Shown here: piece after piece, positions 8,432 through 12,339 of the stretch
How the letters are laid out: each line of letters starts with the position of its first letter
Numbering within the stretch: position 1 is the stretch's first letter
Assembly (NCBI GenBank): GCA_965242985.1
Contig: OZ251520.1
Span: 696,163 to 760,162 of the forward strand
Length of the DNA stretch: 64,000 nt
From: an uncultured candidatus Porisulfidus sp.
GTDB lineage: Bacteria; Pseudomonadota; Gammaproteobacteria; Poriferisulfidales; Poriferisulfidaceae
Direction: 5' to 3'
Translations under genes and position numbers: made by a program
Notes under the pieces: generated by a model
The model's database searches: none
The model's input: the letters and a program-made list of their open reading frames with translations, nothing else
What the model was told of the DNA's origin: nothing

Positions 8432-8971
8432 ATGGCGGAGCCGCTGGCGCTGCTGCTGCGGATCTGCCTGTTCGCGTTCCTGGCGCGCTTCCTGCTGGAG
8501 GCGCACGGCGCGGATCCGCGGCAGCCGCTGGCGGCGGCGCTGGCCCGCGTCACCGATCCGGCCTGCCGGCCGCTGCGGCGCGCGTTCGGGCGGCGGGTCG
8601 ACTGGCGGGCGCCGCTGCTGCTGATCGCGCTGCTGCTGGAGTTGGCGTCGCTGCATCTGCGCGGGGCGTTCGGGCATGCGTCGCCGCTCGGCGCCGCGCT
8701 GTGCGCCGCGGCGCGCCTGGGCGCCGACCTGCTGACGCTGTACTTGGTCTGCCTGCTCTTGGCGGTGGTCGCGAGCTGGGTGCAGCTGTCCGCCGCCGCG
8801 CAGTCCTACCTGGACCTGGTCCGCTGCGTCACCGCGCCGCTGCTGGGCCGCATCCGGGCGTTCCTGCCGGCCGCCGGGCCGCTGGATTTCTCGCCGATGA
8901 TCGCGCTGTTCGGCGTGTACTTCGCGCAGGCCGGGCTGGCCCGGCTGGGGCGCTGGGCGCTCGGCGTCTAG
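8432..8971 (+). CDS. yggT: YggT family membrane protein
   Basis: Two YggT-like repeats (VTDP..PLRR; VTAPLL..IRAFLP..LDFSPMI); yggS-proC-yggT synteny. Confidence 0.85.
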   Translation: MAEPLALLLRICLFAFLARFLLEAHGADPRQPLAAALARVTDPACRPLRRAFGRRVDWRAPLLLIALLLELASLHLRGAFGHASPLGAALCAAARLGADLLTLYLVCLLLAVVASWVQLSAAAQSYLDLVRCVTAPLLGRIRAFLPAAGPLDFSPMIALFGVYFAQAGLARLGRWALGV

Positions 8972-9005
8972 CGGGCCCGCGTTCCGGCCCCGGGCTGCGT
9001 GCCAC

Positions 9006-9052
9006 ATGTGCTGGCATCAGGCGGCGGCGTCGCCGCGCCGCTGGGGCATAAT
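9006..9052 (+). promoter_or_regulatory. Conserved upstream motif, copy 1 (ATGTGCTGGCA-N14-CGCCGCGCCG-N3-GGGCATAAT)
   Basis: Same three blocks recur at 10076-10123; ends in a -10-like CATAAT upstream of NHLP precursor 1. Confidence 0.55.
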
Positions 9053-9118
9053 GGGGTCGCTGGCGCGTTTGAAAAAGTGCAAAAGCGGATTTCATGAGTC
9101 GTATCGCGGAGGCGGACG

Positions 9119-9424
9119 ATGAGCGAGGGTTTTGAAGAAAGCATGCGCCGGTTGCGGGGAGATGCCGCATTCCGCGCGAAACTGCGCGCCGAGCCGGCGG
9201 CCGCGCTCGCGGAGCAGGGCGTGGACGTGCGGCCGGGAATCGAGTTCCGGGTGGTCGAGGATTCCGCCGACGTGCGCCACTTCGTGCTGCCGCCGGCGCG
9301 GAACAGCCGGCTGCCGGACGACATGCTGCGCGCGGTGGTGGGCGGCACGCGCCGCATCGGCGGGTTCGAAGTGTCGGACACGCAGTTGTGGCTGTTGCGG
9401 ATGCTGCTGCAGGGCCGGGCGTAG
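9119..9424 (+). CDS. NHLP-leader RiPP precursor 1 (core TRRIGGFEVSDTQLWLLRMLLQGRA)
   Basis: D..FRAKL..EP..AL..G..RVVED....HFVLPP leader and L..VVGG double-glycine site; GGAGG RBS. Confidence 0.82.
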   Translation: MSEGFEESMRRLRGDAAFRAKLRAEPAAALAEQGVDVRPGIEFRVVEDSADVRHFVLPPARNSRLPDDMLRAVVGGTRRIGGFEVSDTQLWLLRMLLQGRA

Positions 9425-9463
9425 GCTGGGGGTTTCCGGAATTTCGCTGCGGGAGAAACGGGC

Positions 9464-9733
9464 ATGGACAAATTTCTGGCAATCGTCGATCTGTGCCGGA
9501 ACGATTCCGGCTTCCGGGCGCAGATGCGCGCGGAGCCGGCCGCGGCGCTGGCCGGGCAGGGCGTCGCCGTGGCGGACGGAGTCGACCTCCGGCTGGTCGA
9601 GGACACGCCCGCGGTGCGCCACTTCGTGCTGCCGCCGGACCCGAACGCCCTGCTGGAAGACAGCGGCCTGGACGCGGTCTCCGGCGGGTCGACCGTGACC
9701 TGGAGTTCGTCCGGAAGTTACGGCTTCGTGTGA
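9464..9733 (+). CDS. NHLP-leader RiPP precursor 2 (core STVTWSSSGSYGFV)
   Basis: Same leader family, LEDSGLDAVSGG cleavage motif; GGGAG RBS. Confidence 0.87.
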   Translation: MDKFLAIVDLCRNDSGFRAQMRAEPAAALAGQGVAVADGVDLRLVEDTPAVRHFVLPPDPNALLEDSGLDAVSGGSTVTWSSSGSYGFV

Positions 9734-9770
9734 CCGGGCCCGGATGCGCCTTGCTTGGGAGGAACTGATC

Positions 9771-10055
9771 GTGGACAAGTTTCTGGAAATGGTCGCGTTG
9801 TGCCGGAGCGACCCGGGTTTCCGCGCGAAGTTGCGGGCGGAGCCGGCGGCCGCGCTCGCGGAGCGGGGCATCGTCGTGGCGCCTGGAATCGATTTCCGGT
9901 TGGCCGAGAACAGCGCCGCCGTGTACCACGTCGTGCTGCCGCCGGATCCGAACGTCCGGCTGTCGGACCATGGCCTGAGCGGCGTCGCGGGCGGCGCGTC
10001 CGCCGATTGCGTCGGTTGCGCCGACCGCCTGATCTTCGACTGCATCGGGCTCTGA
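9771..10055 (+). CDS. NHLP-leader RiPP precursor 3 (core ASADCVGCADRLIFDCIGL)
   Basis: GTG start giving MDKFL like precursor 2, with GGAGGA RBS; LSDHGLSGVAGG motif. Confidence 0.87.
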   Translation: MDKFLEMVALCRSDPGFRAKLRAEPAAALAERGIVVAPGIDFRLAENSAAVYHVVLPPDPNVRLSDHGLSGVAGGASADCVGCADRLIFDCIGL

Positions 10056-10075
10056 GCCCGCGCCGCGAATCCGAT

Positions 10076-10123
10076 ATGTGCTGGCACTTCCCGGCGCGGC
10101 CGCCGCGCCGTTTTGGGCATAAT
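10076..10123 (+). promoter_or_regulatory. Conserved upstream motif, copy 2 (ATGTGCTGGCA-N14-CGCCGCGCCG-N4-GGGCATAAT)
   Basis: Matches 9006-9052; lies upstream of NHLP precursor 4. Confidence 0.55.
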
Positions 10124-10201
10124 TAGCACTTGAACCGGCCGCCGGCGCGCCGCGCGGCCGACACTCGCACCTACCGAAACGGAATCCATCCGGGAGCAAT
10201 C

Positions 10202-10477
10202 ATGGACAAACTGACCGAAATGGCGCACCTGTCGCGGGACCCCGAGTTCCGGGCCAAGATGAAATCCGAGCCGGCCGCCGCGCTGGCCGGGCAGGGCGTG
10301 CACATCGCGCCCGGCGTGGAGCTGCGGGTGGTCGAGGACCGCGCCGACGTGCAGCACTTCGTGCTGCCGGCGGACCCGAACGCCCTGCTGGCGGACAGCA
10401 GCCTGGACGCGGTCGCGGGCGGCATCGGCCCGGCCGCCTGCCGCAGCTCGCTGGTGTCCTGCCTCGGCGGCTGCTGA
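10202..10477 (+). CDS. NHLP-leader RiPP precursor 4 (core IGPAACRSSLVSCLGGC)
   Basis: MDKL start with GGGAG RBS; DPEFRAKM..EP..HFVLP..LADSSLDAVAGG. Confidence 0.88.
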   Translation: MDKLTEMAHLSRDPEFRAKMKSEPAAALAGQGVHIAPGVELRVVEDRADVQHFVLPADPNALLADSSLDAVAGGIGPAACRSSLVSCLGGC

Positions 10478-10508
10478 TCTCCGGACGGCTTCCGCCGCGG
10501 CCGCGCGC

Positions 10509-11486
10509 CTAGGCCGGAAGCCCGTCCAGCCAGTTCCGGTACAGCGTCCGCGCGACCTCCCGCCAAGGCTCGCCGCAGCCGCGCGCGAGCCGTTCCTCCG
10601 GGAAATCCTCCGCGCGGACGCTTCGCGGCGCGGCCTCGGCCCGCCGCCGGAATTCCTCGGCGGCGCGCGCCGCCGCCGCATTCAAAGTGCGCTCCGGCAG
10701 CGGCGGGTAGTCGTCCCGCTCGCCGGCCAGGAAGCGCAGCGCCTCGCGCTTGTACTCCTTCACCAGACTGACCGCCTCGTATTCCGGGTGGCCCTGGAAG
10801 TAGACCCGCCGCCCGTCCGGTTCGGCCGCCACCTGCACGCCGGCCGCCGGGCCGGCGGCCAGCACCCGCACGCCGCGCGCCGCGAGGTCGGCCGCGGCGA
10901 CTTCGTTGAAGCGCGAATGCGGCATGTCGAAGCGCGCCGGCGCGCCCGCCAGCAGCGGATGCTCCGGCGCCAGCACCTCGTGCGCGAACACGCCCCAGCA
11001 TTTCCGCGGCAGGTGGCGGCGGCGGATGCCGTGGAACAGCTGCGCCGCCGCGTGCGTGGCCAGGCAGGAGCACACGGTCGGCAGCCGCGCGCGGTCGGCG
11101 CGCTCGAGCAGCCCGGCGAGCTCCGCCCAGAACGGCTCCCGGTCCAGGTCCGGACGGGTCACGTTGGCGCCGGTGACGATCAGGGCGTCGAGGCCGCCGG
11201 CGCCGATTTCGGCGCAGTCCCGGTAGTGCCGCGCCTGGTGCGCGGCGCCCTCGGCGCCGCGCGGGACGCCGCGGATGCCGTACAGCCGCACCGCGCAGCA
11301 GCGCCCGTCGTGCGCGTCCAGCAGGCGCAGGAACTGCCGCTCGGTCGCCTCCAGGGCGCGGTCCGGCATCATGTTGAGCAGGCCGACGCGCAACGCCCGG
11401 AGGCCGCGCGCCGCCGGCCGCACCCGAACGCCCTCCCGCGCCACCCGGGCCATGCTCGGCAGGTCCGGGAGCTGCAGCAGCGGCAT
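10509..11486 (-). CDS. metA: Homoserine O-succinyl/acetyltransferase (MetA family)
   Basis: GLLNMMPD..ATERQFLRLL, IVTGAN, SCLA, PHSR, QGHPEY. Confidence 0.92.
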   Translation of the reverse strand: MPLLQLPDLPSMARVAREGVRVRPAARGLRALRVGLLNMMPDRALEATERQFLRLLDAHDGRCCAVRLYGIRGVPRGAEGAAHQARHYRDCAEIGAGGLDALIVTGANVTRPDLDREPFWAELAGLLERADRARLPTVCSCLATHAAAQLFHGIRRRHLPRKCWGVFAHEVLAPEHPLLAGAPARFDMPHSRFNEVAAADLAARGVRVLAAGPAAGVQVAAEPDGRRVYFQGHPEYEAVSLVKEYKREALRFLAGERDDYPPLPERTLNAAAARAAEEFRRRAEAAPRSVRAEDFPEERLARGCGEPWREVARTLYRNWLDGLPA

Positions 11487-11493
11487 CGCCGGC

Positions 11494-12339
11494 TCAGGCG
11501 CCGCGGTCGATGGCGCGCGCGACCAGCTCGACGAAGTCCTCGGCGTTCCGCGCCGCCTGCGCCTCCTCCATGTCCGCGGTGTAGCCGTGCTCGCGGGCGA
11601 TGCCCTGGTAGCGCTCCAGCCGGTCGCGCGACAGCCGCGGGAAGGCCCAGCGGGTGAACTCGTCCGGGTCGATCCGGCCGTACGCGCCGACCGCGCGCTC
11701 GCGCCGGAACTCCTCCAGCGCCCGGTCCAGGAAGGCCTCCGGGTAGTACAGCGGCTTCGGGTTGCGCGCCTGGCGCCGGCACAGCTCCTCGATCTGCCGC
11801 TCGTCGGCGTGGATGTACAGGATCACGGTGTGCTCGGCCAGCAGCTCGAAGACGCTGGGGTCGCGCAGCTCGCACAGGCTGCCGCCGGCGTCGTTGACGA
11901 AGTGCGGGTAGCCGTAGACCTGCATGCCGCGCTGGATGAACGCCGGCACGTCGCGCATCGCCTGCACCTCGGCGTCGTGGTGCAGGCGCAGGCGGCGCTT
12001 GAACTCCGCCAGCGGCAGGCCGTCGCGCGCCGGGTCGCCCGGCTTGCCGAGGAAGGCCGTGACCGGCTCCAGGTTGTCGACCGTGATGTTGTTGCGGATG
12101 TAGATCGAATCCGAGCGCAGCAGCTCCGCCAGGAACGGCACCGACATCATCTTCAGCTTGAGCTTGTCGAGGATCTCCTCGTTCAGGTAGCGGGTGCCGA
12201 TCCGGTAGTCGCCCGAGTAGTTGAACCACGCGGTCTTGTCGAGCCGGTTGGCGAGCAGGGTCTTGCCGACCCCGGACATGCCGAGCAGGGTGACGGCCTT
12301 GCGCTCGAGGCCGCGGAATTCGTCGGCGGAGAGGCGCAC
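11494..12339 (-). CDS. Uncharacterised P-loop NTPase / kinase-like protein
   Basis: Walker A GMSGVGKT, DYRIGTRY, DAGGSLCE; codirectional with and 7 bp upstream of metA. Confidence 0.75.
   Translation of the reverse strand: MRLSADEFRGLERKAVTLLGMSGVGKTLLANRLDKTAWFNYSGDYRIGTRYLNEEILDKLKLKMMSVPFLAELLRSDSIYIRNNITVDNLEPVTAFLGKPGDPARDGLPLAEFKRRLRLHHDAEVQAMRDVPAFIQRGMQVYGYPHFVNDAGGSLCELRDPSVFELLAEHTVILYIHADERQIEELCRRQARNPKPLYYPEAFLDRALEEFRRERAVGAYGRIDPDEFTRWAFPRLSRDRLERYQGIAREHGYTADMEEAQAARNAEDFVELVARAIDRGA

Follow-up and report, generated by a model that had tools for sequence, protein, structure and literature searches.

Here we analysed a 64-kb stretch of DNA (the window) from a candidatus Porisulfidus genome, G000, and the array of four tandem genes, pre1–pre4, that it carries at positions 9119–10477 between yggT and metA. 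Each gene encodes a predicted precursor of a peptide made on ribosomes and modified after translation (RiPP) that begins with a leader peptide resembling nitrile hydratase (NHLP). We think it likely that the four are functional precursors belonging to a dispersed family of 62, that they lie behind copies of a family promoter box, and that their products would be matured in trans by a single distant enzyme set and exported by an NHLM transporter with a C39 peptidase. The family is probably a trans-matured, co-regulated NHLP library. Maturation in trans had been proposed in an earlier note on this DNA (the original prediction) and is still the best reading of the sequence, with a single set of RiPP enzymes and a single NHLM/C39 system encoded about 631 kb from the array. 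The same note had ranked the array as the best candidate in the window for an undescribed system. We do not uphold this. The enzyme set is of the published dehydrazole type and multi-precursor libraries are also published; therefore, this is a known strategy varied rather than an undescribed system. Window coordinates are used for the array and coordinates prefixed C1 for the whole genome, which is a single contig of 1,877,398 bases with 70.7% GC and is 98.5% complete.

Four precursors with a shared leader and unrelated cores

All four leaders matched the hidden Markov model (HMM) TIGR03793 (leader_NHLP) when it was run on them, which bears out their proposed identity. The matches were 45.4 bits (E 5.4e-12) for pre1 (9119..9424, plus strand, 101 amino acids [aa]), 55.2 bits (E 4.9e-15) for pre2 (9464..9733, plus strand, 89 aa), 47.7 bits (E 1e-12) for pre3 (9771..10055, plus strand, 94 aa) and 53.5 bits (E 1.7e-14) for pre4 (10202..10477, plus strand, 91 aa). 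The curated cut-off of this model is 50.9 bits, which is passed by pre2 and pre4, with pre1 and pre3 just under it. The whole leader of all four aligns with the 62-member family, and the Pfam model NHase_alpha (PF02979) matched every one of the four precursors (E 7e-7 to 5e-3). In comparisons of sequence only, pre4 matched the solved NHLP leader in PDB entry 8tb1 at E 1.2e-10 and nitrile hydratases at about E 1e-6.

The four leaders are 53–64% identical in pairwise comparisons, and the tandem arrangement with a common leader at these coordinates was as originally described. A DNA repeat search found a 250-nt unit in four direct copies, 64–74% identical, that end a few bases past the Gly-Gly codons. 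Beyond this point the cores do not align to one another, in agreement with the divergence noted before. All four leaders end in GG and contain the strict motif Lx4L-x4-GG. The pre1 core (TRRIGGFEVSDTQLWLLRMLLQGRA) is 25 aa long with no Cys and a hydrophobic C-terminal half, the pre2 core (STVTWSSSGSYGFV) has seven Ser/Thr among its 14 residues, and the cores of pre3 (ASADCVGCADRLIFDCIGL) and pre4 (IGPAACRSSLVSCLGGC) have three Cys each. Judged by composition, pre2, pre3 and pre4 are plausible substrates for azole or dehydro-residue formation and pre1 may be epimerised only or exported only.

The array's four open reading frames (ORFs) are 9119–9424 (101 aa), 9464–9733 (89 aa), 9744–10055 (103 aa) and 10130–10477 (115 aa). 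For the last two we favour the internal starts, GTG 9771 for pre3 and ATG 10202 for pre4, over the alternatives ATG 9744 and TTG 10130 because of Shine-Dalgarno (SD)-like GGAG motifs and the alignment. Such motifs lie 5–9 nt ahead of the array starts, for example GGAGG 8 nt upstream of pre1 and GGGAGGA before the GTG of pre3. All four frames, cores included, have a coding pattern of GC content, with 0.88–0.96 at third codon positions (GC3) and about 0.5 at second positions (GC2).

A dispersed family of 62 precursors

A six-frame search of G000 with TIGR03793 returned 63 matches (E ≤0.01), 17 of them over the cut-off, and the same model had 0 matches in 14 control genomes. Frame extension resolved these into one leader-only ORF and 62 precursors, whose leaders are about 85 aa long and whose cores span 14–43 aa. 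The leader ends in GG in 60 precursors and in AG in two. The motif Lx4L-x4-GG occurs in its strict form in 29/62 and in a relaxed form in 59/62. The genes fall into 18 loci that together occupy 21.8 kb (1.2% of the genome), and other arrays, too, have housekeeping genes as neighbours (RecJ, IMPDH, BioB, an aminotransferase, RsmI and LpoA). The array had been called an orphan. This holds locally, because no maturase is encoded in the window, and does not hold genome-wide, where it is one of 18 loci with a maturation cluster about 631 kb away.

In a maximum-likelihood tree, the 62 leaders cluster by locus (20 label changes vs 46.2 in shuffles). The four window leaders form one clade with the eight leaders of an array at C1:1.11 Mb (support 97/90), and most of the precursors adjacent to the enzymes fall in a separate clade, which has 24 leaders (support 100/99). 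The nearest paralogue of pre1, at C1:1112740 in this sister array, is 54% identical over 98 aa, with similarity that runs into the start of the core. Within the sister array, two adjacent precursors (C1:1113206 and C1:1113661) have identical 39-aa cores (SGHHHEAG...) and near-identical leaders, which points to recent tandem duplication. An ISL3-family transposase gene (PF01610, 224 bits) also lies inside this eight-member array at C1:1111034-1112335 (L016:6037-7335, minus strand). At another locus, an M16 (insulinase-type) peptidase gene (L019:7602-10169; C1:1598602-1601172, plus strand) directly follows the five-member array at C1:1.596 Mb.

One maturation and export cluster in the genome

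Six-frame HMM searches of the whole genome gave no match to YcaO, LanC-like, DUF4135, radical SAM or C39 models inside the window, and the searches confirmed the earlier statement that the window has no YcaO, LanM, radical SAM, halogenase or C39 gene. The original prediction had staked itself on a maturase and a C39 transporter being encoded somewhere in the genome, and both are. They occur in one maturation and export cluster at C1:1337524-1356349. Four enzyme genes are adjacent at C1:1337524-1345157 and encode a fused leader-binding/YcaO protein (TIGR03882 130 bits; TIGR03604 255 bits), a SagB-type dehydrogenase (TIGR03605 154 bits), a PoyD-type radical SAM epimerase (TIGR04517 323 bits, just short of the 325-bit cut-off, over the full model length) and an 858-aa DUF4135/LanM-type dehydratase (TIGR03897 197 bits, below the 304-bit cut-off, covering model positions 90–700 of 932). 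The cluster also contains four precursors, a divergent TolC-like gene, a gene for an MT-A70-like protein and the NHLM exporters, all over their cut-offs, namely ABC1 with its C39 peptidase (TIGR03796 1013 bits), ABC2 (TIGR03797 824 bits) and HlyD (TIGR03794 228 bits).

There is a single YcaO, a single C39 peptidase and a single DUF4135 protein in the genome, and tblastn found no paralogues of the four maturase-type enzymes in G000. Eight radical SAM matches occur genome-wide, none of them in the window. No Trp halogenase passed the cut-off anywhere in the genome. A candidate near an array at C1:1.40 Mb was rejected since the lone weak match is a flavocytochrome c sulfide dehydrogenase, and a possible second RiPP ABC transporter at C1:1.365 Mb was rejected as an MsbA-LpxK-type housekeeping gene. 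The leader-only ORF (C1:1347396-1347569, plus strand) covers model positions 3–60 and stops two residues past the match; it has no tail, GG or core and sits just upstream of the TolC-like gene behind a weak promoter box.

These assignments suggest how the four peptides could be processed. The NHLP leader, about 75 aa long with Lx4L-x4-GG at its end, would be the handle for the sole RiPP enzymes in the genome, 631 kb away. The fused docking/YcaO cyclodehydratase and the SagB-type dehydrogenase would form azol(in)es at Cys, Ser and Thr, the PoyD-type epimerase would introduce D-residues, and the DUF4135 LanM-type dehydratase would form dehydro-residues. The C39 peptidase of NHLM ABC1, acting with ABC2, HlyD and the TolC-like protein, would then cut after GG and export the core.

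The C-terminal 340 aa of the dehydratase had no Pfam match, and no LanC-like Pfam match was found in this protein or elsewhere in the genome. A structural model of the tail (mean pLDDT 78.8) gave high Foldseek probabilities for LicM2, CylM and LanC-like proteins with TM scores of at most 0.38, and the matches were weak (E 1.3e-7 for LicM2; probability 0.96 for LanCL1). Only a single Cys is found among the invariant columns of an alignment of this tail. By comparison with LanC motifs, this suggests that the zinc ligands are missing. A complex prediction for residues 1–400 of the fused YcaO protein with the precursor alignment scored 0.00, which speaks neither way.

A putative promoter box shared by precursor loci

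A repeat search of the window found a 35-nt repeat (D3) upstream of pre1 and of pre4, and a 28-nt putative promoter box forms part of each copy. Box 1 (8996..9023, plus strand) contains ATGTGCTGGCA at 9006–9016 and scores 28.2 bits with a position weight matrix (PWM); a −10-like hexamer, CATAAT, read from the sequence at 9047..9052 (plus strand), lies 30 nt after its TGGCA. Box 2 (10066..10093, plus strand; 26.2 bits) contains ATGTGCTGGCA at 10076–10086 and is followed at 31 nt after TGGCA by the same hexamer, also read from the sequence (10118..10123, plus strand). From this arrangement we would expect two transcription units, pre1-pre2-pre3 and pre4, each behind one copy of the box. A sigma-70 consensus scan of 8700–10700 gave 0 sites and an intrinsic terminator scan of the same interval also gave 0.

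The core ATGTGCTGGCA sits within the genome-wide consensus gCCGTCCCGCATGTGCTGGCACCGg, which is found 75–205 nt before start codons and about 26–31 nt before a TATAAT-like hexamer. The exact 11-mer ATGTGCTGGCA occurs twice in the window vs 0.01 expected, and the 8-mer TGGCACCG is present in 16/63 upstream regions vs 0.14 expected. The 28-nt PWM had 37 genome matches at ≥22 bits vs 0 at ≥20 bits in a Markov-shuffled genome; 33 of these matches arise by construction, because the PWM was trained on 33 sites chosen by regular expression upstream of precursors. Of the other four, one, at C1:1112493 (30.4 bits), has been cut off from precursor C1:1110772 by the ISL3 transposase and three are not before precursors. 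At least one strong box occurs at 17/18 precursor loci. The box at C1:1347173 heads four precursors that run into the YcaO-epimerase-dehydrogenase-dehydratase operon. A weak box of 18.2 bits points towards the leader-only ORF and the TolC-like gene.

The box appears to be specific to this genome. Our comparison set comprised 40 relatives: 15 congeners, three genomes of one genus from another family of the same order, and 22 others. A 20-mer allowed ≤3 mismatches had 33 matches in G000 and 0–2 in each of the 40 relatives (0–1 for the reversed control), and no box of ≥18 bits was found in 835 kb of related YcaO loci. Position and distribution together suggest that the box acts as a promoter. We considered and rejected a sigma-54 reading of its TGGCAC, given a GG-to-GC spacing that is non-canonical by eye against the consensus and the TATAAT-like hexamer about 30 nt downstream.

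Separately, we observed that poly-C or poly-G runs of 10–14 nt lie between the box and the −10-like hexamer in six or seven precursor promoters (runs at C1:565775, 1000703, 1001474, 1112463, 1337462, 1452861 and 1368208). Homopolymer runs of ≥8 nt number 53 in the genome, most of them 11–16 C or G. Slipped-strand phase variation is possible at such runs, and homopolymer assembly error may contribute to them. Both window promoters lack a run. One could imagine that all 62 precursors form one regulon in which slipped-strand changes switch arrays on and off, giving this reduced-genome sponge symbiont a combinatorially variable, centrally matured repertoire in which the window promoters are constitutively wired. 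We regard this scenario as rather doubtful.

Conservation of the cores

The original prediction described the cores as hypervariable. This is correct between paralogues and is mostly not so across orthologues, as judged from the sequences available. For pre2, eight metagenome orthologues are 72–93% identical with a nearly invariant core. Differing alignment cells number 6/112 in the core and 123/600 in the leader, and variable columns 2/14 and 36/75; the sequences are interrelated and we therefore put no probability on this difference. For pre4, orthologue P0010 is identical at 15/17 core and 58/74 leader positions. Since the cores of pre2 and pre4 are kept better than their leaders in orthologues, the variability of the cores lies between paralogues. 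In eight full-length orthologues of pre3, the C-terminal G.LIFDCIGL is exact in seven and near-exact in the eighth, and there are indels in mid-core. The Cys residues of pre3 and pre4 and the Ser/Thr-rich core of pre2 are retained across orthologues. Conservation of cores across populations argues for a separate target for each peptide and is relevant to the question of what peptide libraries are for.

The stretch 8900–10600 is present in sequencing runs from five studies, several of them labelled sponge metagenome; a look for RNA runs over this interval returned none. A contig from another study (X3) covers 8900–10600 with 31 differences and four gaps (98% identity) and keeps the array between yggT and metA. 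When a leader alignment was used to query JGI metagenome contigs, it found distant relatives at 33–51% identity only and no orthologous array. As a separate observation, contig depth summed in four metagenome runs rises several-fold at 9185–9298, 9584–9697 and 10268–10381, where the leaders are conserved, and numerous short, divergent pieces of contigs occur there. The samples with this rise seem to contain many related NHLP leaders, whether of this organism or of others.

These data bear on whether the array is a decaying remnant, that is, a set of duplicated precursor genes that no longer have a function. For pre1, the protein collection held only the copy from G000 itself and one weak match, so it has no orthologue there; the GC content of the array (0.70–0.74) is below that of its flanks (0.76–0.80), and an insertion sequence (IS) element lies in the sister array. 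All three would suit decay. Against this, all four frames are intact with an SD-like motif and coding-type GC3, cores are kept across orthologues from several metagenomes, and the array persists in its place in the contig from another study. We consider decay extremely improbable.

Core composition and the fate of the peptides

The fraction of Ser plus Thr over the four window cores is 0.19 and that of Cys is 0.08. For comparison, the Ser plus Thr fraction is 0.10 in the sister array at C1:1.11 Mb and 0.33–0.49 in the precursors near the enzymes. The composition of the cores tracks the clade of the leader. One possibility is that the leader only directs secretion and cleavage by the NHLM C39 transporter and that the cores are released with little or no modification, as double-glycine bacteriocins or signalling peptides are. 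Several points favour export without modification. The window leader clade stands apart from most enzyme-proximal leaders, the window cores are short (14–25 aa) and poorer in Ser, Thr and Cys than the enzyme-adjacent ones, and pre1 lacks Cys and is hydrophobic in its C-terminal half. In addition, NHLM ABC1 is encoded in 11/15 congeners and the PoyD-type epimerase in 0/15, and where coordinates were compared (for example in congener G007) the ABC1 gene lies 1–3 kb from an NHLP gene. By contrast, the retention in orthologues of the Cys residues of pre3 and pre4 and of the Ser/Thr-rich pre2 core suits azole or dehydro chemistry. The Lx4L motif, which YcaO enzymes use (PMC12455567), is kept in all four leaders, and the same box precedes the precursors that head the maturase operon. 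Together, these points make export of unmodified cores unlikely.

A second possibility is that an unrecognised maturase family elsewhere in the genome acts on the window clade and the 1.11 Mb array, which would constitute an undescribed modification system. The distinct leader clade and atypical core composition would fit with this, as would the existence of unannotated genes such as that for a 281-aa P-loop protein beside metA, and a DUF6866 protein encoded behind a strong promoter box. However, nothing positive indicates a second enzyme set, and the sister array is flanked by RecJ, an IS transposase and an autotransporter-like protein. We think this quite improbable.

Our preferred reading, maturation by the one recognised enzyme set, ties the array in the window to the distant cluster because of family membership, the leader motif and the shared box. 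There are observations that weigh against it. At the level of the models, two of the four leaders and the epimerase fall slightly under their cut-offs (TIGR03793 and TIGR04517, respectively). The window leaders belong to a different clade from the main enzyme-proximal one, the cores of this clade and its 1.11 Mb members are the least rich in Ser, Thr and Cys in the family, with pre1 lacking Cys, and the pre3 core is kept less well than its leader in the closest orthologue (15/19 vs 70/75 positions identical). Of the box statistics, only the specificity counts are independent. Three strong boxes stand ahead of genes for a TonB-dependent receptor, a DUF6866 protein and a thioredoxin (C1:261183, 32.3 bits; C1:531007, 28.1 bits; C1:544704, 25.6 bits; all plus strand), and the HlyD/ABC exporter operon is not preceded by any box of ≥14 bits, which also argues against a single regulon. 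Finally, some NHLP enzymes are described as strictly leader-specific, and DprM, which accepts its own NHLP leaders, rejects foreign NHLPs (PMC12537861).

Comparison with known systems

The enzyme set of G000 is identical in kind to that of dehydrazole-type proteusins (carnazolamide, cca cluster), which have a YcaO, an azoline dehydrogenase, a radical SAM epimerase, a DUF4135 dehydratase and an NHLP precursor (PMC10676384), and in G000 the four enzyme genes are side by side. The DUF4135 dehydratase of cca has a cyclase-like tail without the normal LanC signature (PMC10676384). Part of the definition of this class is that a YcaO, a dehydrogenase and a DUF4135 dehydratase carrying a cyclase-like, non-zinc domain are encoded together, as they appear to be in G000. 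The class is also defined by an in-cluster precursor with a Ser/Thr/Cys-rich core; the four window precursors do not have this character and other G000 precursors do. Unlike cca, which has one precursor beside the enzymes, G000 has 62 at 18 loci, with the window four 631 kb away. Leader removal in G000 would be carried out by the NHLM C39 transporter and not by an S8 peptidase, the candidate methyltransferase is MT-A70-like, and a product (carnazolamide) is described for cca only. A Thioglobus cluster is reported to have several precursors with divergent leaders (PMC10676384).

A closer parallel for many cores per enzyme is the mpr cluster, in which the MprC YcaO/dehydrogenase pair processes ten NHLP precursors, MprE1–E10, with differing cores, and in which the two Leu of Lx4L are needed for processing by the YcaO (PMC12455567). 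G000 resembles mpr in having one YcaO/dehydrogenase pair, many cores and the Lx4L motif, and pre4 is a relative of the MprE7 leader (the 8tb1 match above). It differs in that mpr is described as a single cluster of ten, and the G000 family is six times larger, dispersed and divided into several leader clades, with an epimerase and a dehydratase added.

The strategy of one enzyme set for many precursors is best known from the lanthipeptides of marine picocyanobacteria, where ProcM has 29 substrates and SyncM 79 putative precursors, with Nif11-type leaders and a LanM that has a zinc cyclase (PMC10783134). G000 shares with these prochlorosins and synechococsins the scattered single or tandem precursors, a small marine genome, a long leader ending in GG, divergent cores and one promiscuous set. 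Many dispersed precursors with a single enzyme set, 62 at 18 loci, are found here too, and service in trans would follow the same pattern. In contrast to that group, the chemistry expected in G000 is azoles, dehydro-residues and D-residues and not lanthionines. The Nif11 model was not among the NCBIfam matches (E ≤10) of the window precursors, and G000 lacks the combination of Nif11 leaders with a ProcM-like, zinc-cyclase LanM that marks prochlorosins. It appears that the same strategy has arisen again with proteusin/dehydrazole chemistry in a 1.88-Mb gammaproteobacterium-like genome.

The srp proteusins occur in sponge-microbiome bacteria across phyla and combine YcaO chemistry and bromination with a highly conserved core, LCCCW (PMC10858898; bioRxiv 10.1101/2023.06.09.544420). 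G000 is similar in having NHLP precursors with predicted YcaO chemistry in a sponge-microbiome bacterium, and the congener G007 carries an srp-like precursor near an NHLM transporter gene. It is unlike srp, which is marked by its core and a flavin brominase, in that its 62 precursors include no LCCCW-type core, no halogenase is over cut-off and the cores are divergent. A genome-encoded NHLM export set (ABC1 with C39, ABC2 and HlyD), a mark of the NHLP family at large, is present in G000 at 631 kb from the array. A literature search, in which few subscription journals were covered, found no description of this precursor expansion. In practical terms, the family gives a compact four-enzyme toolkit 62 natural substrates to work on and provides a defined box with which to look for the regulator.

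Relatives and the insertion between yggT and metA

NHLP matches number 0–5 in each congener (mostly one) and 6, 27 and 25 in the three genomes of the other-family genus, and none was found in the remaining 22 relatives. Among the 41 genomes, a PoyD-type epimerase is found only in G000 (63 NHLP matches), G026 (27) and G038 (25; the gene is partial). The closest relatives of the fused YcaO protein are at 38 loci with 40–76% identity, in metagenome-assembled genomes (MAGs) titled Vicinamibacterales, Alphaproteobacteria, Gammaproteobacteria, candidatus Porisulfidus, Binatia, Nitrospirales and Marinacidobacterium. NHLP leaders lie within 10 kb at 35/38 of these loci (1–14 at each, 153 in total), and the full-length dehydratase is kept at 22/38. 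The presence of such relatives with arrays in MAGs of several phyla points to exchange of peptide-library cassettes among co-resident bacteria.

The neighbours of the array are YggS, ProC and YggT upstream and MetA downstream. The flanking genes are yggT (8435..8971, plus strand; PF02325 YGGT 78.8 bits; start codon not fixed) and metA (10509..11486, minus strand, convergent with the array; NF003776 357.6 bits, just under its cut-off of 358), and these HMM matches agree with the position originally given for the array. An Rfam search of the window gave no match. Comparison of the yggT-metA interval across relatives, which had been proposed, showed that MetA is present in 15/15 congeners at 55–63% identity and that ProC-YggT abuts it in 7/15, with a gap of about 15–330 bp. 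In the other 8/15, what follows metA bears no relation to G000 DNA. Because yggT adjoins metA in the seven, we conclude that the array in G000 is an insertion at a variable junction, and the genus seems to have an insertion hot spot at the 3' junction of metA.

Beside metA on its other side is the gene for the P-loop protein (281 aa; window 11494–12339, minus strand), which belongs to no Pfam or NCBIfam family. This protein is kept at 64–73% identity beside metA in 15/15 congeners, which do not have the array, and is therefore not array-specific; on these grounds it was rejected as a hidden maturase.

The DNA after metA in G007 (L024:382-1426) looks by eye like a helix-turn-helix antitoxin and PIN toxin pair, and the corresponding DNA of G015 (L032:1-1236) is also unrelated to G000. 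The sole NHLP precursor of G007 (L090:6390-6665, minus strand) ends in ...LNEEQLETIAAGLCCCL, and its LCCCL end resembles LCCCW of srp. No precursor of this kind occurs in G000. In G007, about 2 kb separate the precursor from an ABC transporter gene.

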